Source: an uncultured bacterium | GTDB lineage: Bacteria > Cyanobacteriota > Vampirovibrionia > Gastranaerophilales > Gastranaerophilaceae | Assembly: GCA_937894665.1 (NCBI GenBank) | Contig: CALAWF010000027.1 | Location: forward strand, 1-35,752 | Length of the DNA stretch: 35,752 nt | Direction of reading: 5' to 3' | Part shown: piece by piece, positions 25,050 to 33,110 of the stretch | How positions within the stretch are numbered: the stretch's first letter is position 1 | Layout of the letters: each line of letters starts with the position of its first letter | Program-made: the position numbers and the translations under genes | Notes under the pieces: model-generated | The model's database searches: none | What the model saw: only the letters and a program-made list of their open reading frames with translations | What the model was told of the DNA's origin: nothing

Positions 25050-25122
25050 GCCCCCATCGTCTAGAGGCCTAGGACAACACCCTTTCACGGTGTAGACAGC
25101 GATTCGAATTCGCTTGGGGGTA
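25050..25122 (+). tRNA. trnE: tRNA-Glu (anticodon UUC), CCA not encoded
   Basis: Hand-folded cloverleaf. Acceptor GCCCCCA/TGGGGGT (G1-U72 wobble). D stem GTCT/GGAC. Anticodon stem ACACC/GGTGT with loop CT-TTC-AC. T arm AGCGA-TTCGAAT-TCGCT. Discriminator A. The gene is followed by TTT rather than CCA. Confidence 0.9.
25082..25122 (+). repeat. attL: 41-bp direct repeat (tRNA-Glu from the anticodon loop to the discriminator)
   Basis: ctttcacggtgtagacagcgattcgaattcgcttgggggta is identical at 25082-25122 and 33070-33110. Flanking bases differ on both sides. Confidence 0.9.
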
Positions 25123-25140
25123 TTTTATAAAAATAAAGAT

Positions 25141-25172
25141 ATGACTAGCTTTGAGGCTAGTTATTTTTTTTG
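25141..25172. terminator. bidirectional intrinsic terminator (tRNA-Glu on plus, int on minus)
   Basis: Stem ATGACTAGC/GCTAGTTAT with a 6-nt loop. It is followed by a T8 run on the plus strand and by a T-rich run on the minus strand. Confidence 0.6.
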
Positions 25173-25205
25173 TTTAGTTTTCAAATCCTCCCTAAAATTA
25201 ACTAA

Positions 25206-25226
25206 ATGGTAACAACTATGGTAACA
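25206..25226 (+). repeat. tandem ATGGTAACA doublet (candidate integrase arm-type sites, attL arm)
   Basis: atggtaaca at 25206-25214 and 25218-25226. The same 9-mer doublet recurs at 32934-32953 in the same orientation. Confidence 0.6.
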
Positions 25227-25232
25227 AAAATT

Positions 25233-26363
25233 TTAATCCAGTTTTTGACTACCAAAAATTTTCTTATCCAGTAATGCGTTCGCTTGGACTGGTAACTCAT
25301 GTAAAATTTGCGTATAAACTTTTGACGTAACGATAGTATTACTATGTCCAACTTGTCTAGATATATACTCTAGAGGCACACCACACAAGTGCATTATATC
25401 TACATACTGTCCTCTTAGGTCATGCACTCGACAATAGTCTTCATCATACCCACATTCGATTAATAAAGCTCGGAACTTACGTTCAACCCACTTTGCTCCG
25501 ACAATATTTCCTTGTGAGGTTCTAAATAAAAAATCGTCATTACTAACCACAAATTTATCAATATGCCACTGAATAATATTAAGCACCTGTTCCGATATAT
25601 CAACAATTCTAGTTGACGCTTCTTTCTTAGTTCTGTTCTTTAATTGTCCTTTAGTAAACTGCTTGTTAATAAATATTCGCCTATTTGGTATATCTATATC
25701 GCTAATTTTTAAGGCTGAATATTCTCCAACCCTTGCACCCGTAAGAGTTGCAAGTACAAACAGACAGTAATATTCAGGGAACTTTTTCTTGCAAACTGAT
25801 ATAAGCTCAGCTAATTCCTTGGTCGAAAACCGATTTCGTAGCTTTTGGGGAATTGACTTATTACTCATTCCTACGAATGGATTAGTTCTCACTTGTTCCA
25901 ATTTCATAGCATAGTTGAATGAGGCTTTTAATACTTTGACACACATGTTATAGGCGTGCGGACTTGCTTTTTTGTTGTGCATACTTCTCTCCCATGCCTG
26001 TATCAATGTGGGTGTGATTTTAGTAACTTTAATATCTTTGAAAAATGATAAGTGATTACGTAACACTCCCTCATAGTTTGATACTGTGCCGAGAGAATAT
26101 TCTCCCTCATTCTTTGCGAAATCGAGAAATAATTTGACAACGTCATATACAGTAGCTTCGTTGTTTAATTCTATTTTGTTTGCTTCAAAGTTGTTTAGAA
26201 ACTCTCTCTCGGCTTTTTCGGCTTCTTTTTTGGTCAAGAATGTTCCAACAACTTTTTGCTTTCGCTCTGAGTTGCCGAACCTGTCATATTTACCTGTTTC
26301 GACCCTCACAACAGAACGCCAACGAATAGCACCGCTGGGATTTGTTCGCTTTTGAACCACCAT
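25233..26363 (-). CDS. int: tyrosine-type site-specific integrase (phage integrase family)
   Basis: The N-terminal arm-type DNA-binding segment (GAIRWRSVVRVETGKYDRFGNSERKQKVVGTFLTKKEAEKAEREF) comes first. Catalytic residues are TGARVGE (Arg), HDLRGQY (HxxR) and GHSNTIVTSKVYTQ (His...Tyr). Confidence 0.93.
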   Translation of the reverse strand: MVVQKRTNPSGAIRWRSVVRVETGKYDRFGNSERKQKVVGTFLTKKEAEKAEREFLNNFEANKIELNNEATVYDVVKLFLDFAKNEGEYSLGTVSNYEGVLRNHLSFFKDIKVTKITPTLIQAWERSMHNKKASPHAYNMCVKVLKASFNYAMKLEQVRTNPFVGMSNKSIPQKLRNRFSTKELAELISVCKKKFPEYYCLFVLATLTGARVGEYSALKISDIDIPNRRIFINKQFTKGQLKNRTKKEASTRIVDISEQVLNIIQWHIDKFVVSNDDFLFRTSQGNIVGAKWVERKFRALLIECGYDEDYCRVHDLRGQYVDIMHLCGVPLEYISRQVGHSNTIVTSKVYTQILHELPVQANALLDKKIFGSQKLD

Positions 26364-26584
26364 TACTGCACCTCAGGCTGATGATAGTGTGCTTCTTTGA
26401 ATTTAATTATTTCATCTTTAACCCAAAGTTTTTTACCGCCGTAATTGACGAAACCAATACTTTTTTCGTTCAACATTAATTTTCGGGCATAGTGGTATTT
26501 TAAACCGAGAATTTCTGCAACCTGTTTCAAAGTAATAAGCACTTTTTCACCAATGTTACTGTTTGTTATCGTGTTAACTGCCAT
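26363..26584 (-). CDS. xis: excisionase-family/MerR-like HTH DNA-binding protein
   Basis: 73 aa. LTLKQVAEILGLKYHYARKLM...GGKKLWVKDEIIKF fits the excisionase-type winged HTH. Its stop overlaps the int ATG (TAATG), indicating translational coupling. Confidence 0.8.
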   Translation of the reverse strand: MAVNTITNSNIGEKVLITLKQVAEILGLKYHYARKLMLNEKSIGFVNYGGKKLWVKDEIIKFKEAHYHQPEVQ

Positions 26585-26695
26585 ATTTTGTCTCCTTTAT
26601 TGTTGTCAATATTTTCTATTTTTCTTAACGGTGTTCATTATTTATTTACATTTACTGTAATTAATATACAACAAAAATTTTTATTGTCAACTATA

Positions 26696-26712
26696 AATGA
26701 ACAATGTTCATT
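26696..26712. promoter_or_regulatory. 17-bp palindromic operator candidate in the xis/int - XRE divergent region
   Basis: AATGAACA-A-TGTTCATT is a perfect palindrome. An extra half-site TGTTCATT lies at 26632-26639. A TTGCCA-N16-TAAAGT promoter-like element lies immediately downstream, before the XRE gene. Confidence 0.5.
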
Positions 26713-26758
26713 AATTTGCCACAATATTTTTTTGTGTTAAAGTTAAAGTGGAGGTTTT

Positions 26759-27151
26759 ATGTCAATACGGAAACGAATAACAAATACAGACTATGATAGT
26801 CTTTCTGAAAACATCGGTAAAAAATTCAAGCAGTACAGACTTAAAGCTGGATTATCTTTACGTGATATTTACAGAGAGGAACAGATTAGTATTGCCTTAA
26901 TATCAGATTTGGAAGCAGGAAAGAAGCTACCTAGAATGGAAACGTTAGTTCGCCTATGCAACAAAGTTGGCATGCCTTTAGACGAAGTTTTTAGCTCTAG
27001 AATTACTCCCTCTCGAGTTGATTTAATTGCTGGAGGGCAGAGTACTGAGGATAAAATGAGAACAATCCTGTTGAATGACAATATTCCAACCAGCCTTGCT
27101 GATGAACTAGTCAAATACTTTGAGTTTTTAAAGACAAAAGAAAATTTGTAA
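26759..27151 (+). CDS. XRE-family HTH transcriptional regulator (cI-like island repressor candidate)
   Basis: HTH_XRE segment LKAGLSLRDIYREEQISIALISDLEAGKKLPRMETLVRLCNKVGMPLDEVF. GGAGG RBS. Divergent from xis-int. Confidence 0.85.
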   Translation: MSIRKRITNTDYDSLSENIGKKFKQYRLKAGLSLRDIYREEQISIALISDLEAGKKLPRMETLVRLCNKVGMPLDEVFSSRITPSRVDLIAGGQSTEDKMRTILLNDNIPTSLADELVKYFEFLKTKENL

Positions 27152-27197
27152 CATGCACTTGAAAAGGAAACTTAATCATGTTATAATAGGAGTAGAA

Positions 27198-27530
27198 ATG
27201 GATAAACAATATACAGCAGTGCTTACCGATGAAGCAGATGAACAGTTGCTTGAGCTATCCTCGGAGGACAGAGAAACTATACTTGAAGCAATTCGTGCAT
27301 TTGAATTAATCGGAAGAGGTTATAAAAACCTCAATACACTGGGCGACAAGCTCTTTGAAATAAAACCGCAAGGGGTAAGAGCATACTTCATGTACCACCC
27401 CAAACAACGAAAGATTATAATAGTAGGTTTTATATGCTTAAAAACTACAAAGAAAGCTCCGCCACGATATAAAGAACAGGCACGCAGAAATGTTGCAAAA
27501 TACCTTGAACAGGAGGCTCAAAATGGCTAG
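27198..27530 (+). CDS. RelE/ParE-superfamily toxin, Gp49/HigB-like
   Basis: Start at MDKQYT, preceded by AGGAG. LFEIKPQGVRAYFMYHPKQRKIIIVGFICLKTTKKAPP follows the Gp49-like pattern (L.E.r...G.yRv.y......i.ll..f.KK....P). Confidence 0.7.
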   Translation: MDKQYTAVLTDEADEQLLELSSEDRETILEAIRAFELIGRGYKNLNTLGDKLFEIKPQGVRAYFMYHPKQRKIIIVGFICLKTTKKAPPRYKEQARRNVAKYLEQEAQNG

Positions 27531-27828
27531 AACACTTGATGAAATCCTTAAGGATAGAAAAATAGTTACCCAAGAACAAGCTGACAGAATTGAGAAAAAT
27601 GCAATCACTGAAGCTGAGCATTATTGGGGTGGAAAACGTGCTAATTCAGGTAGAAAAGCAAAAATTGCAGATAGCCCACGAAATAAGCAGATTAAGGTAT
27701 CTGACGGGGTAAAAGTTGCAATCCAGTATGCCTATGCCAATGGTATTGTTATAAGTATCGATGACATTAAATTACTCCAATATGCAAAAGAAACAGGTAT
27801 TACTTTAGATAAATTGCAGCATGCTTAA
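27523..27828 (+). CDS. putative antitoxin/DNA-binding partner of the Gp49-like toxin
   Basis: Start at MARTLDE, preceded by AGGAGG and overlapping the toxin stop by 8 nt. It carries a basic GGKRANSGRKAK tract followed by a beta-strand-like KQIKVSDGVKVAIQ. No canonical XRE HTH is visible. Confidence 0.55.
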   Translation: MARTLDEILKDRKIVTQEQADRIEKNAITEAEHYWGGKRANSGRKAKIADSPRNKQIKVSDGVKVAIQYAYANGIVISIDDIKLLQYAKETGITLDKLQHA

Positions 27829-27855
27829 TCATAACAAAAGACATAATTACACTAG

Positions 27856-27890
27856 AAACTCACTTTTCCTATAGAAAAGTGAGTTTTTGA
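27856..27890 (+). terminator. intrinsic terminator after the toxin module
   Basis: 13-bp stem AAACTCACTTTTC/GAAAAGTGAGTTT with loop CTATA, followed by TTGA within a T-rich run. Confidence 0.7.
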
Positions 27891-27940
27891 TAAATCCTAA
27901 AATCTCTTTCTAGACTTATAATACAGCCTGTTTTTAGGAG

Positions 27941-27960
27941 AGAAATGTCAACACATTTCT
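27941..27960. repeat. 20-bp palindrome AGAAATGT-CAAC-ACATTTCT, with a related inverted copy (ATGTTGACAT) near 27979-27988
   Basis: Read directly. It lies upstream of the small coiled-coil gene and second recombinase. A TTGACA-N17-AATAAT promoter-like element overlaps the downstream copy. Confidence 0.6.
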
Positions 27961-28045
27961 TTATAAACTCACTCCAATATGTTGACATAGTGAGTAAATG
28001 GAGTAATAATAGAGATATAGAGAACGCAAAAACAGGAGATACAAA

Positions 28046-28321
28046 ATGAAAAATTCAGACATCAGGAACACAGTTGAAGAACTTCAAAACCTTTACGCTC
28101 AAGCTGACGAATTAAAAGCTCAAATCACTGCAAGAGAAGCGATGATTAAAGAAGAAATGGAAGCTAGAGAAACAGAAACACTCGATTTGGGTAATGTTAT
28201 CATAAGATTTACTTCAATTATTTCTAATAGATTTGACACTACTAACTTCAAAAAGCAATATTCAGACCTATACAACTCGTTCATTAAACAGGTAGCAAGT
28301 AGAAGATTTTCAATAGCATAG
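28046..28321 (+). CDS. small coiled-coil protein, unknown function
   Basis: 91 aa. N-terminal coiled coil (VEELQNLYAQADELKAQITAREAMIKEEMEARE), then a beta-rich tail (LGNVIIRFTSIISNRFDTTNFKKQYSDLY). AGGAG RBS. Confidence 0.75.
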   Translation: MKNSDIRNTVEELQNLYAQADELKAQITAREAMIKEEMEARETETLDLGNVIIRFTSIISNRFDTTNFKKQYSDLYNSFIKQVASRRFSIA

Positions 28322-28355
28322 GGGTAAAAGCCCCTATGGGGGCGGGAGATTAGAC

Positions 28356-29036
28356 ATGGAAAGAACAACTGACACATATACTACAACTAGGTATGGAAAA
28401 GAAGTAGAAATACACAAACCAAGCGGAAGTACACCTATTACTGAACAGAGTAAATTATATGAGATAAAAAAAGCTCTAACTAAGGGAATTATGAACGAAA
28501 AAGGAAAAGTAATCATCAAGGCTCCACATGAAAAATATTACATACTTTGGAGTTTATCTCTTGGTCTTGGTTTCAGAATTTCGGATACATTAAAATTGAC
28601 TGTGAAAGATGTTACTTCTTCTAATGCAGAAATAACCGAGCAAAAAACAGGCAAAAGGCGTATGGTAACTGTACCCGCAGGGTTACAACCTGTGATTAAT
28701 GAATACATTAGAAAATACGACCTAAAAGAAAACGACAAGCTGATTTTTGCCAACAGAAAAGACGGGACTAAAGACAAAGCTATCGACAAATCTCAGGCAT
28801 ATAGAAAATTGCGAGAGATAGTAGAAGCTGTTTGTCCTGATGTGCAATTTTCTAACCATACTACGAGAAAGACTTGGGCTTACTTCTTATACTTAAAAGA
28901 GGACAAGAATATAGCTATTGTACAAAAAGCCCTTAATCACACGTCTAGCCTTACGACCTGCGATTATATAGGATTATCGAAAAAGGAATTGAAAGAAACT
29001 CTGATTAAATATGACCCAATGTCGGGAGAATGGTAG
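28356..29036 (+). CDS. small tyrosine recombinase, catalytic domain only
   Basis: Catalytic residues GLGFRISD (Arg), EQKTGKRR (Lys region), NHTTRKTWAY (HxxR) and LNHTSSLTTCDYIG (His...Tyr). At 226 aa it has no recognisable SAM-like core-binding domain. GGGAG RBS. Confidence 0.82.
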   Translation: MERTTDTYTTTRYGKEVEIHKPSGSTPITEQSKLYEIKKALTKGIMNEKGKVIIKAPHEKYYILWSLSLGLGFRISDTLKLTVKDVTSSNAEITEQKTGKRRMVTVPAGLQPVINEYIRKYDLKENDKLIFANRKDGTKDKAIDKSQAYRKLREIVEAVCPDVQFSNHTTRKTWAYFLYLKEDKNIAIVQKALNHTSSLTTCDYIGLSKKELKETLIKYDPMSGEW

Positions 29037-29038
29037 AG

Positions 29039-29383
29039 TTAGTCTTTTAAACTATCCATTCCCTTTTGGGCAGTCTTTAATAGGTTATAGTAAAATTCAA
29101 TTTCTTGCTCATTTGCATTACTTAGTATCTGCATAGCTTTAATAAAAAATGGGTTGTCATTAGTTGATACTTTAGATAAATCAACACCAACATCTTCAAG
29201 TTTTAAATCTAGTGCTCTTAGAATTTTATTTAATGTTTCGAAATTTGGGTGAAAACGCCCTGTTTCTATCTTTGAAATATGCTTTTCATGAATATTCGCC
29301 ATTTCCGCTAACTTTGCTTGCGAAAGCCCTCGAGATATCCTAATTTGTTTTAATTTATCTCCAAAAGTATTGTCTTTGCTCAT
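29039..29383 (-). CDS. XRE-family HTH transcriptional regulator
   Basis: FGDKLKQIRISRGLSQAKLAEMANIHEKHISKIETGRFHPNFETLNKILRALDLKLEDV is a canonical HTH_XRE. Divergent from the zinc-ribbon membrane gene pair. Confidence 0.88.
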   Translation of the reverse strand: MSKDNTFGDKLKQIRISRGLSQAKLAEMANIHEKHISKIETGRFHPNFETLNKILRALDLKLEDVGVDLSKVSTNDNPFFIKAMQILSNANEQEIEFYYNLLKTAQKGMDSLKD

Positions 29384-29434
29384 CCTTATACTCCTCTGTT
29401 ATCTTAAAGAGTACACATAGCAAATTAAACAAAT

Positions 29435-29482
29435 CTTATTGATATTATCTGTTTACAATTTGTATCAACTTATTGATATTAT
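29435..29482 (+). promoter_or_regulatory. two 14-bp direct repeats CTTATTGATATTAT (candidate operators/promoter elements)
   Basis: Identical copies at 29435-29448 and 29469-29482, 34 bp centre to centre, in the 146-bp divergent intergenic region. Each contains TTGATA. Confidence 0.55.
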
Positions 29483-29529
29483 ATCTTTTTCATGATTTTA
29501 TCTATTTAGAATTGTAATAGGAGGAAAGT

Positions 29530-29946
29530 ATGGCACAAAACTCTTGGTTTAGAACAGGTATTTTATATTTTGTTGATACTTGGTTAGAATATACCGTATT
29601 TATTTTATTTGCTGGGCTAATTTATGTGTCATGGCAATTTTTAAAAGATGAAAATACAATATGGCTAGGACTTCTTATCCTTTGTGTTGGGATATTAACA
29701 TTGTCACTTATTTCATGGCTAATCTTTAGTTTAATTGATATTAGGTACTTATTAAAAACGATATCAGAAAACACCAAGAGAGAAATTGATATAAATGCTA
29801 TAACAAAACAAGAGTCCAAGACATTACCTCCAGTTCCAGCAGAAGATGAAAAATATTGTCCATACTGCAATTCAATAATAAAAAAGAACGCTAAAAAATG
29901 TAGATTTTGTAATATGTGGTTAGGTAATAATGGAGGTAACGCATAA
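29530..29946 (+). CDS. membrane protein with a C-terminal zinc ribbon
   Basis: Three hydrophobic helices, then CPYCNSIIKKNAKKCRFCNMW (CxxC-N10-CxxC). GGAGGA RBS. Confidence 0.8.
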   Translation: MAQNSWFRTGILYFVDTWLEYTVFILFAGLIYVSWQFLKDENTIWLGLLILCVGILTLSLISWLIFSLIDIRYLLKTISENTKREIDINAITKQESKTLPPVPAEDEKYCPYCNSIIKKNAKKCRFCNMWLGNNGGNA

Positions 29947-30767
29947 TGAAATGTCCTTACTGTCATGAAGAAGTTGAAAAAAATTCTATTATATGTTCTG
30001 TTTGTGGAGAAAAAATTCCCACAATATATAGTATTTTTGACTCAATAAAAACTCAACTTCCCAAAATCCGAAAAATATTCACTATATGTATGTTTAGTAT
30101 ATTATTTGTAATTTGCATTTTTTTTCTAGTTAATTTCATGATTAAAACTATAGACAGTAATAAACTTACAGATACAGGGTATAAATCAATAGAGTTAAGT
30201 TATACTCCTGTGGGAAGTTTTTATGACGTTCTTTCTTCCCTTGGACAGCAAGAACAAGATTTGATAACATTTTTCAAAAAAAGTAAAAAAGAACAAGATA
30301 ATTCAAAATTATTTGCAATATTCATGGATAATGTGAATAAAACACGTCAATATTTTACGGATAACTTCAATTATGAAAAAAGTTTAAGTGAACAAGGTAT
30401 TATGACTGCAACAAAAATTACAGACGCAAATCCAAACCCAATAAGAATAACCAGCCCTGCTATAAATATTCTTAAGGTCGGTTTTAGGGGAGCTGTCGGT
30501 TTAATGATAGATTATGATTATGTACTAAAAACATATACTCCATACTTGACAGACGACTGGAAAGAATACTTTGAATTGTCAAAGCAATTGGACAATGATT
30601 TACAAATTGCAGAATATAACGATGACGGAATAAGTTTCGTACGGGCTTATTCCAAATGGGCAAACAAATGGAAAGAGTTTATAAAAAAATATCCTGACTT
30701 TCACATGAATGGTGATATATATGAAATGATACAGGAGTATGAGGGATTTGTTAATAATTATTATTAA
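29946..30767 (+). CDS. N-terminal zinc-ribbon, single-pass membrane protein with an unknown C-terminal domain
   Basis: KCPYCHEEVEKNSIICSVCGEKI (CxxC-N11-CxxC), a TM helix (IFTICMFSILFVICIFFLVNFMI) and a ~200-aa extracytoplasmic domain. TAATG overlap with the upstream gene. Confidence 0.8.
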   Translation: MKCPYCHEEVEKNSIICSVCGEKIPTIYSIFDSIKTQLPKIRKIFTICMFSILFVICIFFLVNFMIKTIDSNKLTDTGYKSIELSYTPVGSFYDVLSSLGQQEQDLITFFKKSKKEQDNSKLFAIFMDNVNKTRQYFTDNFNYEKSLSEQGIMTATKITDANPNPIRITSPAINILKVGFRGAVGLMIDYDYVLKTYTPYLTDDWKEYFELSKQLDNDLQIAEYNDDGISFVRAYSKWANKWKEFIKKYPDFHMNGDIYEMIQEYEGFVNNYY

Positions 30768-30825
30768 TCAGAATTAAGTTGAGCCCCAAATATTAAGATT
30801 TTGAAAAAAGTTGTATGTTTTAGCA

Positions 30826-31021
30826 CCTGAGCCCTCAAAACCTGTTCATGCCAGTTTAAATTGTCGTTTGAAAGCTGAAACGAGGCTGACAGCGAGTAGC
30901 GGCTCAGCTAAGAGTGAAAGCGAGAAGTCAGCAAAAGACTTCAAAGCAGAACGGTTTCAGTCTTGGATGAGTGGCGTGAGCCACCTCAGGAAAGAGTAAC
31001 AACTGAAAACGGGCTCTTTTT
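30826..31021 (+). ncRNA. candidate structured non-coding RNA, family not recognised
   Basis: A 200-nt block (30821-31020) is 95/200 G+C by my count, in an AT-rich context. It has several perfect local hairpins, including a GNRA-capped one (GUGGC-GUGA-GCCAC, 30971-30984), and long-range complementarities. It ends in GGGCUC plus a U5 run. The only ORF across it (30811..30999) starts at TTG, lacks an RBS and has an unprotein-like composition. Confidence 0.4.
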
Positions 31022-31074
31022 GTCCATTTTTCTTTTATTATTCTACTAATTTCTTCAAATTCTGCAAAAGAAAA

Positions 31075-31100
31075 ACCCCGCTACTATTACGTAACGGGGT
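31075..31100 (-). terminator. intrinsic terminator of the minus-strand four-gene operon
   Basis: ACCCCG/CGGGGT stem with a 14-nt loop, followed on the minus strand by TTTTTCTTTT. It lies 25 nt after the stop at 31125. Confidence 0.55.
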
Positions 31101-31124
31101 AAATAATTACATGGAAGATTTCAA

Positions 31125-31409
31125 TTATAATAATTCACATTTATGCAGAATATCCGTTATTCGTTCAAGTTGTAAGTCATTCAAGCCCTCAGCTCTGAGT
31201 GCACTCTCAACCTTATGTATAACCTTACCTTTAAATTCCGCATTTATCACAATGTCTGGTCTATTTCTGTACCTGTACAAAGGCATGTGTACCTGATAAA
31301 TACAGTCTATTACAATACCTTTGTATGCACTCGGAATTGCACTAACCTTTACTTTATTTATCAACTTAATTTGTAATGATTTCAAACAACCTATATCGAT
31401 GTTACTCAT
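31125..31409 (-). CDS. hypothetical protein (94 aa), last gene of the operon
   Basis: ATGA overlap with the upstream gene. It has a weak, unverified resemblance to Mor/C-type activators (QVHMPLYRY...RPDIVINAEFKGK...LNDLQLERITDIL). Confidence 0.7.
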   Translation of the reverse strand: MSNIDIGCLKSLQIKLINKVKVSAIPSAYKGIVIDCIYQVHMPLYRYRNRPDIVINAEFKGKVIHKVESALRAEGLNDLQLERITDILHKCELL

Positions 31410-31723
31410 TTAATTATTACTCCTATCTCCTCACGTATTGCCCTCTGTAACAGTGATAACACCTGTTTTCGCCAAATACCTCTTGGATTATCTCTTTCAA
31501 TTTTATCAGATACGGATTTGATGAGGATAAAGCAATACCGCTCCACCTCAACATCAACCCCCGCACCGCTTTTGACACTTTCTCGAATGATAAAGGAGTT
31601 CAGAACATCGAGCAGATAATCTCGGGATTTACCTTTTCGATACCTGCGAACCCTCGCTATAACAGCAGAAACAGCGCTATTAACAAGAAATTTACTTGCT
31701 ATCACTTTATTACAGCTCCTCAA
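31406..31723 (-). CDS. hypothetical protein (about 100 aa)
   Basis: The track start is a non-ATG codon overlapping the upstream gene by 14 nt. A GTG at 31705 preceded by GAGGAG is an alternative. The protein is basic and helical (VIARVRRYRKGKSRDYLL...RGIWRKQVLSLLQRAIRE). No family recognised. Confidence 0.65.
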   Translation of the reverse strand: MRSCNKVIASKFLVNSAVSAVIARVRRYRKGKSRDYLLDVLNSFIIRESVKSGAGVDVEVERYCFILIKSVSDKIERDNPRGIWRKQVLSLLQRAIREEIGVIIK

Positions 31724-32333
31724 TATCTTGGTATTCCCAGTCCTGAATTTCTCGTTTTATCCCTAAGTCGCTCCAATTTAGCGGGTTAGAAACGACTACA
31801 TAACCCATTTTTTCGTCTTTTTCAAAGTACGGTTCAACAGTTTTTCCGTTTCCTTTACCATCGTCAACATCAAGCCACACTTGGCGGAGTAAGCGATTGT
31901 CCTCCCATTTCATGTATTCTTCTGAAATTTCGCCATTGTTGTAATACTTTTGCTCAGGTTCTTTCCACACCTGTTGCAACTTTTCTTCAACAGCCTGCTT
32001 GACGAATTCTTGTACATTTTGGCACTTCGTAAGGTTAAGTGCGATAGCTATTATAACCTCGTCATGTAAAGAAAATGGAATATATGTACGACTAAGTCTT
32101 TCGCTTGGGGTATGCGGTTTGCGAGGATATTCGACATTACGTGGCATGTGTTTTTGATTGAAAGTGCCATCTAGTGCGGAATTGATAATTTCAATCACAC
32201 CACTGCGAATTGACTTAATTTTTCTCCAATTTCGCAATCTAACTAGACGATTATAAGTTGCACTATCAACACTTACAACCTTGTTATTATTGTTTTTTCT
32301 TCTAACATCTGTATATTTGCGTCTTATAGCCAT
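31710..32333 (-). CDS. hypothetical protein (207 aa) with two RHH-like segments and an acidic Trp-rich C-terminus
   Basis: GGAGG RBS lies inside the end of the upstream small ORF. KVVSVDSATYNRLVRLRNWRK...GVIEIINSALDG and RTYIPFSLHDEVIIAIALNLTK...VQEFVKQAVEEKL both look like strand-helix-helix units. The RHH assignment is by eye only. Confidence 0.75.
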   Translation of the reverse strand: MAIRRKYTDVRRKNNNNKVVSVDSATYNRLVRLRNWRKIKSIRSGVIEIINSALDGTFNQKHMPRNVEYPRKPHTPSERLSRTYIPFSLHDEVIIAIALNLTKCQNVQEFVKQAVEEKLQQVWKEPEQKYYNNGEISEEYMKWEDNRLLRQVWLDVDDGKGNGKTVEPYFEKDEKMGYVVVSNPLNWSDLGIKREIQDWEYQDIEEL

Positions 32334-32335
32334 TT

Positions 32336-32494
32336 TTAATTTTCTCCTCCGTTTTGTAATAATTCTGCTAACTTGTCTTTTAAAAGCTCATTTACAAGTG
32401 AGCTTGGGTTTACGTTTAATTTTGCTTTCGCTTCCATTAAGTCCATTAATGTCTGGACTTCGATACTGAATGATTTTGTTACTTTGGGTTTCAT
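32336..32494 (-). CDS. ribbon-helix-helix (CopG/Arc/MetJ-like) small DNA-binding protein, 52 aa
   Basis: Not in the ORF track because it is under 60 aa. Translated by hand as MKPKVTKSFSIEVQTLMDLMEAKAKLNVNPSSLVNELLKDKLAELLQNGGEN. A GGAGAGGAA RBS precedes the ATG at 32494. The stop lies 2 nt before the next ATG. It shows a beta-strand (KSFSIE) plus two-helix pattern. Confidence 0.65.
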   Translation of the reverse strand: MKPKVTKSFSIEVQTLMDLMEAKAKLNVNPSSLVNELLKDKLAELLQNGGEN

Positions 32495-32667
32495 TTCCTC
32501 TCCCTATCTGTTTTCTAGTACATTTTAGCTTTCGCTTTCTATACATAATTTAAACAGGAGAGACAACGAACAATAATAATGACAATAATAATGTTGTGTA
32601 ATCCAGAGGCAAATACACCTAAACCTAATTTTCCCCCTCTTAAAGCCATTCTGAGGGCTGTAGATTT

Positions 32668-32711
32668 AACATTCAAGAATGTTTGACAGAATAAAAAATT
32701 GATATTAAAAC
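32668..32711 (+). promoter_or_regulatory. promoter-like element with an overlapping 16-bp palindrome, reading toward attR
   Basis: AACATTC-AA-GAATGTT (32668-32683) abuts TTGACA (32683-32688), then a 17-nt spacer and TAAAAC (32706-32711). Confidence 0.4.
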
Positions 32712-32933
32712 ATAGATGTAATTATTGATTGCACTAGAAATATAAAAAGGCGGATAGAGGCACTATGAGCGACTTTCTAGCTCTTGCGCATAAAACTCTC
32801 ACAGAAATTTTCCGGAATTTCAAAACCTTTTACCCCACTGTTATTAGGTTAATAGTATCTATTTTTATAAAAACAAACACTACGTCTATATAGAGATTTT
32901 CTACTTTCTCAGAAATTTTTAAAAGCTCTGGAA

Positions 32934-32953
32934 ATGGTAACACAATGGTAACA
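32934..32953 (+). repeat. tandem ATGGTAACA doublet (candidate integrase arm-type sites, attR arm)
   Basis: atggtaaca at 32934-32942 and 32945-32953, about 117-136 bp left of the attR core, in the same orientation as the attL-side doublet. Confidence 0.6.
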
Positions 32954-33069
32954 ATAGCAATTTAATTAATAAAAATTAATCCTATTTATTAAATTAAAAA
33001 ATCAAGATATTATTCACTTTTCGCCACTTCGTCAACTCAGTAAATTATATAAAACAGCCCCGATAAAAA

Positions 33070-33110
33070 CTTTCACGGTGTAGACAGCGATTCGAATTCG
33101 CTTGGGGGTA
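33070..33110 (+). repeat. attR: displaced 3' half of tRNA-Glu (41-bp direct repeat), followed by genomic CCA
   Basis: Identical to 25082-25122. Here the discriminator A is followed by CCA and then the terminator below. This looks like the ancestral tRNA 3' end. Confidence 0.9.

Follow-up and report, generated by a model that had tools for sequence, protein, structure and literature searches.

A conserved structured element, probably a new RNA, lies tail to tail with an orphan operon in an integrated island of a Gastranaerophilaceae bacterium

The DNA analyzed here (the window) comprises 35,752 nucleotides (nt) of contig CALAWF010000027.1 (GenBank assembly GCA_937894665.1), from an uncultured bacterium of the Gastranaerophilaceae. 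It carries an integrated island of ~8 kb, and within this island the stop of a 273-amino-acid (aa) zinc-ribbon gene (30767) and the stop of a convergent 94-aa gene (31125), the last of a four-gene operon, delimit an intergenic gap (30768-31124). A preliminary description of this gap, made from the window alone, proposed that it holds a new structured RNA on the plus strand, carried as cargo of a mobile element and convergent with an operon whose proteins are unknown. Our comparative analysis supports this proposal: judged by its relatives, the block is a genuine conserved structured element, and it most likely specifies an RNA family that is absent from Rfam 15 and was undescribed before.

All fourteen motifs from which helices had been drawn are found exactly where the preliminary description placed them (CCTGAG at 30826-31, CTCAGG at 30985-90, GAGCCC at 30829-34, GGGCTC at 31011-16, CTGAAAC at 30875-81 and GTTTCAG at 30954-60, and likewise the AAG/CTT, GCTGA/TCAGC, GAAGTC/GACTTC and GTGGC/GCCAC motifs), and its G+C count for 30821-31020 is right (95/200, 47.5%). 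This is the top value among all 200-nt windows of the 35.7 kb, for which the mean is 32.5% with a standard deviation of 4.5%. On the plus strand the whole gap folds to -94.9 kcal/mol (z = -3.07 vs shuffles), compared with z = -2.53 on the minus strand. For a 159-nt core (30863-31021), the values are -52.6 kcal/mol and z = -2.86 on the plus strand, with 0 of 200 shuffles as good, and -40.6 kcal/mol and z = -1.52 on the minus strand, with 16 of 200 as good. The only open reading frames (ORFs) in the gap are one of 62 aa starting at TTG (30811-30999, plus strand) and one of 32 aa on the minus strand. The preliminary description had allowed that the 62-aa frame might be a real protein; this frame is interrupted in four of the relatives described below (L014, L026, L043 and L045), and no reading frame is common to the variants on either strand. 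At the level of sequence comparison, the gap block is thereby shown to be without coding potential.

Relatives of the element, all found via the operon proteins, amount to 11 distinct variants from at least 35 metagenomic contigs; individual loci are designated by L and a number. Five variants of type A were aligned with MAFFT (alignment A5), the structure was drawn after inspecting individual folds, and a covariance model, R1, was built from five variants. R1 gives exactly one match per locus in 30 of the 30 operon-bearing loci searched, window included, and every match is antisense to the operon. E values for the divergent variants (L045, L046 and type B) are 3e-8 to 2e-4, and none of 92 unrelated loci (L004, L010, L030-L041, L062-L139) has a match.

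Covariation among collected homologues, which the preliminary description had proposed to examine, was assessed by pair counts: helices covary strongly and well above slid-partner controls. Across the 11 variants, the proposed structure has standard pairs in 92.1% of 433 pair cells, vs 31-40% in controls with partners slid by 1-3 columns; of the 43 pairs, 27 are altered on both sides, vs 0-6 in the slid controls; and the covariation score is 0.428, vs 0.009-0.069. Three hairpins of the preliminary description are borne out in this model-fitted alignment: that at 30885-30908 (P2), in which 8/9 pairs change on both sides; that at 30924-30942 (HB), with 3/6; and that at 30971-30984 (HA), with 4/8 pairs covarying and an extension to 30968-30988. 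The remaining covarying pairs fall in the closing stem P0 (3/7), in P3 (7/11) and in two inner G-C pairs (2/2). The outer helix had been drawn in two alternative forms, neither of which is conserved. In CCUGAG/CUCAGG the CUCA forms the 3' end of the extended HA, and for GAGCCC/GGGCUC most variants read GAACCY at the 5' site, while type B is without GGGCUC. Because the main alignment was fitted to the model, we also examined two unfitted sources. In the unfitted MAFFT alignment of the five type-A variants, 93.8% of cells are paired and 7 pairs covary, vs 0-4 in slid controls; from this alignment RNAalifold predicts P0, HB and the outer portion of P3 unaided, and P2 and HA in part.

The 11 variants represent about six lineages with mosaic recombination. 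L046 (3385-3538) combines a type-B body with the HB hairpin of L045, and L061 (1156-1316) combines the body of the window copy with the 3' tail of L043. Segments have been reassorted in this way, and base pairing is kept across the mosaic joins.

We propose that the element folds into a four-way junction of P0, P2, a P3 arm tipped by HB, and HA (Table 1). The RNA core would span ~160 nt (30863-31021), possibly with a 5' leader from near 30807.

Table 1. Coordinates of the proposed RNA features and of the convergent operon
Feature	Position	Strand	Sequence and remarks
5' flank or leader	30788-30862	+	A+T-rich; sequence conserved in all variants; homology ends left of 30788
P0 closing stem, 5' strand	30863-30869	+	GUCGUUU; pairs with 31007-31014, G31011 bulged
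Pa 5' strand	30874-30881	+	GCUGAAAC; in junction; alternative partner of 30953-30960
P2 hairpin	30884-30909	+	GGCUGACAGC, loop GAGUA, GCGGCUCAGCU; one-base bulge on 3' side (C30903)
P3 5' strand	30909-30919	+	UAAGAG-UGAAA; pairs with 30955-30965
P3 arm tip	30920-30947	+	Two G-C pairs (30920-21 with 30946-47), then HB
HB hairpin	30924-30942	+	GAAGUC (30924-29), loop AGCAAAA, GACUUC (30937-42); pairs in 100% of cells
Internal-loop strand, then P3 3' strand	30948-30965	+	GAACGG, then UUUCAGUCUUG (30955-30965); conserved
HA hairpin	30968-30988	+	UGAGUGGC, loop GUGA, GCCAC[C]UCA; bulged C; 94% of cells pair
3' linker	30989-31006	+	Purine-rich; AAAGAG at 30991-30996 is a second copy of the P3 5' outer sequence
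P0 closing stem, 3' strand, then U run	31007-31021	+	AAACGGGC (31007-31014), then UCUUUUU; U5 at 31017-31021
Operon terminator, intrinsic	31075-31100	-	ACCCCGUUACGUAAUAGUAGCGGGGU then UUUUUCUUUU; canonical
94-aa gene	31125-31409	-	Last gene of operon
99-aa gene	31406-31705	-	Operon
207-aa gene	31710-32333	-	Operon
52-aa gene	32336-32494	-	Operon

In the alignments the conserved element begins only at ~30788, and 30768-30787 are not common to the relatives. The 5' flank holds an invariant ATTAAGATTT, including TAAGAT (30794-30799), the best -10 candidate, as well as AAAAGTTGTA (30807-30816) and TTTAAATT (30855-30862), the latter adjoining the closing stem. No conserved helix was seen in this flank (alignment A9); a candidate hairpin at 30820-30852 was rejected, as it is broken without compensation in three lineages (L026, L046 and L020). 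In P0, an extra C in L014 and L026 pairs with the G that is bulged in the window copy, and type-B variants have a different yet complementary sequence at the same place (GUUGAC/GGCAAC). P2 pairs in 93% of cells and is capped by a GRRYA pentaloop in 5/7 loop types, though not in type B (AGAA); one of its pairs varies among G-C, G.U and A-U, and L014 and L026 carry a matched inserted U-A pair. An 8-mer of P2 (30888-30895), GACAGCGA, also occurs in the type-B leader and in the attachment core within tRNA-Glu (25093-25100; repeat copy at 33081-33088); with ~0.2 such matches expected, this recurrence is probably due to chance.

The P3 arm pairs in 92% of cells in the fitted alignment, and in the unfitted type-A alignment it is 100% paired, with 3 covarying pairs. 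G30914 lies opposite G30960 as a mismatch in the window copy and L014, and is a bulged G in most other variants. Compensation is readily followed in HB (GAAGUC/GACUUC, GUAGUC/GACUAC, GAUGUC/GACAUC, GAGGUU/AACCUC) and in HA (GUGGC/GCCAC, GGGAGC/GCUCCC, GGGGUG/CACCCC, and UGAG/CUCA vs UAAG/CUUA). CGGUU and CAGC of the segment 30948-30965 are kept in 11/11 variants (CGGUU, zero to one extra U, then CAG). By eye, the second AAAGAG copy in the linker follows the changes of the P3 3' strand in L026 (CAAGAG) and L043 (AAUGAG). At the 3' end, ACGGGCUCUUUUUGUC is invariant in type-A variants and L045, and type-B variants also have a U run shortly past the closing helix.

Two features of the fold as first described require qualification. 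The helix CUGAAAC/GUUUCAG (Pa) can form in all variants (88.9% of cells), but it has no covarying pairs. It cannot form together with P3 (30909-19 with 30955-65), in which seven pairs covary. Forcing either helix gives folds that differ by 1-7 kcal/mol in all nine variants tested, the GCUGA of Pa and the UCAGC opposite are invariant in 11/11 variants, and in L045 a matched A/U insertion makes Pa longer. Because of the invariant GCUGA/UCAGC, the closeness of the two energies and the second AAAGAG copy, a two-state RNA is possible, and the RNA may toggle between the Pa and P3 folds. The HA loop, described as a GNRA cap, fits that consensus as GUGA, GUAA or GAAA, but GUUA, GGUA, GACA and, once, CUCG do not; since the G...A is kept in 6/7 loop types, the loop is better called GNNA.

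Several observations suggest that the element is read from the plus strand, of which we are fairly confident. In this orientation, wobble cells comprise 13 G.U/U.G vs 2 A.C/C.A, and the path G-C, G.U, A-U of the variable P2 pair is tolerated only on the plus strand, which favors it. The plus-strand core is 12 kcal/mol more stable than that of the minus strand, the HA loop reads GNNA on the plus strand in 6/7 types, and it is on this strand that the U run adjoins the closing stem. RNAalifold consensus energies (-28.3 vs -27.6 kcal/mol) do not separate the strands. With TAAGAT (30794-99) as a candidate -10 element, the RNA would start near 30807, and U5 at 31017-31021 is its likely 3' end.

The preliminary description had also suggested examining whether the element co-occurs with the flanking zinc-ribbon genes or with the operon, whose proteins include some that resemble ribbon-helix-helix (RHH) proteins. 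The element goes with the operon, but not with the zinc-ribbon genes. When the flanking proteins were looked up by exact match, only identical copies came back. Homologues of the 207-aa protein always lie in the same four-gene operon (52-57, 185-212, 98-102 and 93-94 aa), behind which there are in all cases 340-410 nt of non-coding DNA with homology to the window gap, and homologues of the 94-aa protein gave further operon loci. The predicted RNA is present in every locus with enough sequence past the last operon gene, and whatever the context, the operon's own terminator comes between it and the last operon gene. The co-directional gene upstream is not constant: it is a zinc-ribbon gene in the window, L020-L025 and L056, a tyrosine recombinase of 184-226 aa in L014, L045, L046, L057 and L058, and a serine resolvase in L016, L017, L026 and L043. 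The element therefore belongs with the operon. A link to the zinc-ribbon genes was rejected, as their homologues on L004-L013 are without such an element; homologues of the 273-aa protein elsewhere lie on a circular 9.9-kb plasmid and at a locus beside an Mrr-like nuclease, none with a comparable gap.

The operon spans 31125-32494 on the minus strand. Its terminator has 10 pairs, 6 of them G-C, and a U-rich tail, and shows compensating stem changes in relatives; because it serves the operon, this part of the gap belongs to the operon. Pfam, PADLOC and PHROG gave no assignment for any of the four proteins. The predicted model of the 207-aa protein is poor (predicted local distance difference test, pLDDT, 63), that of the 94-aa protein is a four-helix bundle (pLDDT 79), and neither has a significant match among Protein Data Bank (PDB) folds. 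To the eye, the 52-aa protein resembles an RHH unit, as do two segments of the 207-aa protein; the only hint of this in Pfam is a CcdA match (E 0.076). The 94-aa protein is 82-97% identical across the family, and the 207-aa protein mostly 51-57%, with one close relative at 89%; on these identities, the four-helix-bundle protein is under much stronger constraint than the 207-aa protein. A search for duplexes between the RNA and the operon transcript found no site at a conserved position.

Searches beyond these contigs point to a narrow distribution. The 207-aa protein had no match by tblastn in annotated plasmids and phages, nor did the replication protein (Rep) of the plasmids described below in annotated plasmids. 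Scanning the proteins of viral contigs with the zinc-ribbon and 207-aa sequences gave no relatives, and two DNA-pattern scans of viral contigs returned 78 loci, all chance matches and none matched by R1. In GTDB genomes, a protein-profile scan found nothing and a DNA-pattern scan gave 12 loci in unrelated taxa, none matched by R1. A metagenome scan recovered only one contig, which was already known.

The island (25123-33110) is integrated in tRNA-Glu, the 3' half of which recurs as a direct repeat of 41 nt at the island boundaries (25082-25122 and 33070-33110). Its full-length tyrosine integrase (25233-26363), which points loosely to Firmicutes-type phage integrases, adjoins a 73-aa HTH_17 excisionase-like gene. 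At 26759-27828, an XRE-type helix-turn-helix (HTH) gene precedes a Gp49/HigB-like gene and a small ORF, an arrangement that resembles a toxin-antitoxin pair and is found in some relatives only. A 226-aa protein (28356-29036) consists of a tyrosine-recombinase catalytic domain only. Plasmid relatives have a 184-aa version or a serine resolvase at this place, as if the position were occupied by an interchangeable multimer-resolution gene. Between this short recombinase and the RNA, the window has a cassette of an HTH gene (29039-29383, minus strand) and two zinc-ribbon membrane-protein genes (29530-30767); L014, L045, L057 and L058 are without the cassette and have a conserved non-coding block of ~75 nt instead.

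The module also occurs on circular plasmids of 5.3-6.2 kb. L016 (5,448 nt), from a k141 assembly, overlaps itself by 141 nt at its ends and so closes to a circle of 5.3 kb, and L017 and L026 have terminal overlaps of 30 nt; the overlaps match the assembler k-mer. The L016 element equals the window copy over the aligned stretch, bar one base in the A+T-rich 5' flank. These plasmids encode a winged-helix initiator (HTH_36/DnaD_N-like), a coiled-coil protein and a serine resolvase. A Pfam scan of the plasmid proteins found no rolling-circle Rep (Rep_1, Rep_2, Rep_trans), and no relaxase family was detected among the operon and plasmid proteins, although the orphan proteins could conceal one. L045 (3448-3493) and L046 (4710-4755) share the same weak Rfam match to mir-12 (E 0.49), certainly no microRNA; these spots suggest another conserved hairpin past the 91-aa gene and before the next gene.

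As to known RNA families, the Rfam comparison recommended in the preliminary description yielded no Rfam 15 family (4227 models) that matches the window copy. At gathering thresholds the only match in the window is tRNA-Glu at 25050-25122, and over 30600-31300 at E up to 10 there are only sub-threshold matches; the operon terminator accounts for most of these, and within the core the highest-scoring one is ssnA, at 16.6 bits vs a threshold of 37.3. At E up to 1, four other variants had no credible match. ARAGORN found no tRNA or transfer-messenger RNA (tmRNA) in the gap, gap DNA showed no similarity to phage and plasmid collections, and no tandem repeats were detected in 30600-31300 at a minimum score of 30. 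A type III toxin-antitoxin RNA (ToxI-like) was rejected because tandem repeats are lacking and the element, being convergent with the operon, does not precede it. A bridge RNA of the IS110 type or a retron msr-msd was likewise rejected, as Pfam identified no adjacent DEDD recombinase or reverse transcriptase.

We favor, at a probability of roughly 0.55, the reading that the element is a separately transcribed RNA acting with or on the operon products. Under this reading the block would encode an undescribed plus-strand structured non-coding RNA, made as a separate transcript, and the RNA gene and the tail-to-tail operon would form one fixed mobile module. The RNA would act as a subunit or scaffold of a small ribonucleoprotein, or as a regulator of the operon products, and its role would lie in plasmid or island maintenance; we infer its transcription, ends, protein partner and function from the comparisons above. 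In a more specific version, which we put forward tentatively, the RNA would be a subunit of the ribonucleoprotein of a self-contained module, with the Pa/P3 flip controlling maintenance or antisense silencing of its own operon.

A number of points weigh against the favored reading. Its evidence comes entirely from sequence comparison, the main pair counts derive from the alignment fitted to the model, and, given about six lineages and mosaics, covarying cells cannot be counted as independent. Ascertainment accounts for part of the 100% co-occurrence, since the variants were found through the operon proteins. The fold models gave no assignment, RNA-binding or other, that would tie the RNA physically to an operon protein. 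The family is narrow, a profile of the 207-aa protein finding just 3 representatives in a set of 1.84 billion proteins. On the plus strand no sigma-70 consensus promoter was found, and a consensus scan identified no canonical terminator there; P0 with U5 behind it is all that is present, and a stem that closes around 140 nt and runs into U5 makes an unusual transcript ending. Moreover, G.T wobbles and stable loops are tolerated in single-stranded DNA too.

This last point bears on a rival that we judge quite improbable, in which the element would be a single-stranded DNA site (a transfer origin, or a single-strand initiation site or origin) of a mobilizable plasmid or island, with the RHH proteins as relaxosome accessory factors. 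Like mobilization modules, the module is common to small plasmids and an integrative element, the first two operon proteins are RHH-like by eye (with CcdA at E 0.076 the only Pfam support), and strand-specific hairpins with G.T wobbles would be selected there too. Yet no relaxase or rolling-circle Rep was detected, the winged-helix DnaD_N-like initiator suggests theta replication, and the element lies downstream of the operon, not in its promoter region. Known transfer origins have a single nick-site hairpin, which the four-arm junction, long-range stem, GNNA loop and U run exceed. The CS-6 motif of ssoA is TAGCGT; the CS-6-like GTAGCGG of the window (GUAGCGG in P2) is not conserved, other variants having GUAGACA, GCAGACA or ACAGCAA there. 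Also unlikely, if less so, is a riboswitch-like conditional terminator, in which P0 beside the U tract would stop transcription at 31021 or allow an antisense RNA into the operon, so tuning it, with the junction sensing a ligand or protein. A riboswitch or cis-regulatory leader for a co-directional gene was rejected because no plus-strand gene follows, the next genes being the convergent operon, and this left an antisense-control variant as the only possible form. The multi-helix junction is closed by a stem abutting a U run, the exclusive Pa and P3 pairings lie within 1-7 kcal/mol (nine variants) with both 5' partners conserved, and in plus orientation the operon hairpin is without a U tail, which would permit read-through into the 94-aa gene. 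However, a terminator scan found no separate terminator/antiterminator hairpin pair, the alternative pairings do not obviously touch the closing stem, no promoter was identified on the plus strand, and an orphan plasmid operon suggests no ligand.

The strand evidence meets a further rival, in which read-through of the terminator (31100-31075) would lengthen the operon mRNA at its 3' end by a structured, minus-strand RNA. In favor of it, the element is always found immediately past the operon, at a constant distance and orientation, and has no promoter of its own; Watson-Crick helices can form on both strands; the RNAalifold energies do not tell the two apart; and L020-type variants have, on the minus strand, a weak hairpin and U7 at the far end. 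Against this stand the wobble cells (13 G.U vs 2 A.C in plus orientation), the core z score (-1.52 vs -2.86 for plus), loops that would read UNNC, and the strong conserved operon terminator preceding the element, so that we hold an origin on the minus strand to be improbable. A decayed or small coding gene, or chance hairpins in a G+C-rich patch, could appeal to the 62-aa ORF in the window; but the frame is broken in most relatives, indels occur as matched base pairs and not codons, there is no DNA similarity to phage or plasmid records, and covariation greatly exceeds that of the slid controls. To the extent that sequence analysis permits, this explanation is refuted.

Among described systems, the predicted RNA most invites comparison with the orphan RNA motifs of mobile elements, Rfam families that emerged from comparative surveys of intergenic regions. 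Like these, it is intergenic, G+C-enriched, multi-helix and covarying, resides on plasmids and integrated elements, and is tied to neighboring genes; unlike them, it has no Rfam 15 match, a very narrow spread and an orphan operon as partner. Riboswitch-controlled antisense RNAs are exemplified by the B12/AspocR system of Listeria and the S-box of Clostridium acetobutylicum, antisense to ubiG-mccBA. The element resembles them in lying convergent behind an operon, with a U tract after it, past which transcription would produce antisense RNA, and in having two near-equal pairings, but it belongs to no known aptamer class and has no distinct terminator/antiterminator platform. With ssoA, ssoU and Frpo-type sites it shares heavy, strand-specific folding in non-coding DNA, a length of 150-300 nt and a place on small plasmids and integrative elements; it differs in that no rolling-circle Rep or relaxase was detected, in its four-way junction vs one long imperfect hairpin, and in having no conserved CS-6-like loop. 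IS110 bridge RNA, or seekRNA, is also a structured RNA of ~150-200 nt beside a small recombinase gene, and in relatives without the zinc-ribbon cassette the gene directly upstream of our element encodes a 184-226 aa tyrosine recombinase or a serine resolvase. These recombinases, however, are ordinary tyrosine and serine types and interchangeable, the RNA lies downstream and not in a 5' untranslated region, and it tracks the operon and not the type of recombinase; a Pfam scan of the island and plasmids found no DEDD/IS110 protein or reverse transcriptase, only Phage_integrase and Resolvase domains.

If transcribed, the element would represent a new bacterial RNA family with a complex fold, combining a four-way junction with a possible two-state switch, and its partner proteins have no relatives outside a tiny clade. 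The whole module makes up about one third of a 5.3-kb plasmid. A plasmid this small rarely carries dead weight, and the RNA-operon pair is therefore probably a core function, one that probably serves maintenance, transfer or conflict by an undescribed mechanism. A small replicon, an RNA of ~160 nt and defined partner candidates make the system experimentally tractable. Should the ribonucleoprotein reading prove true, these small plasmids and islands would harbor a new RNA-protein system without a described relative.

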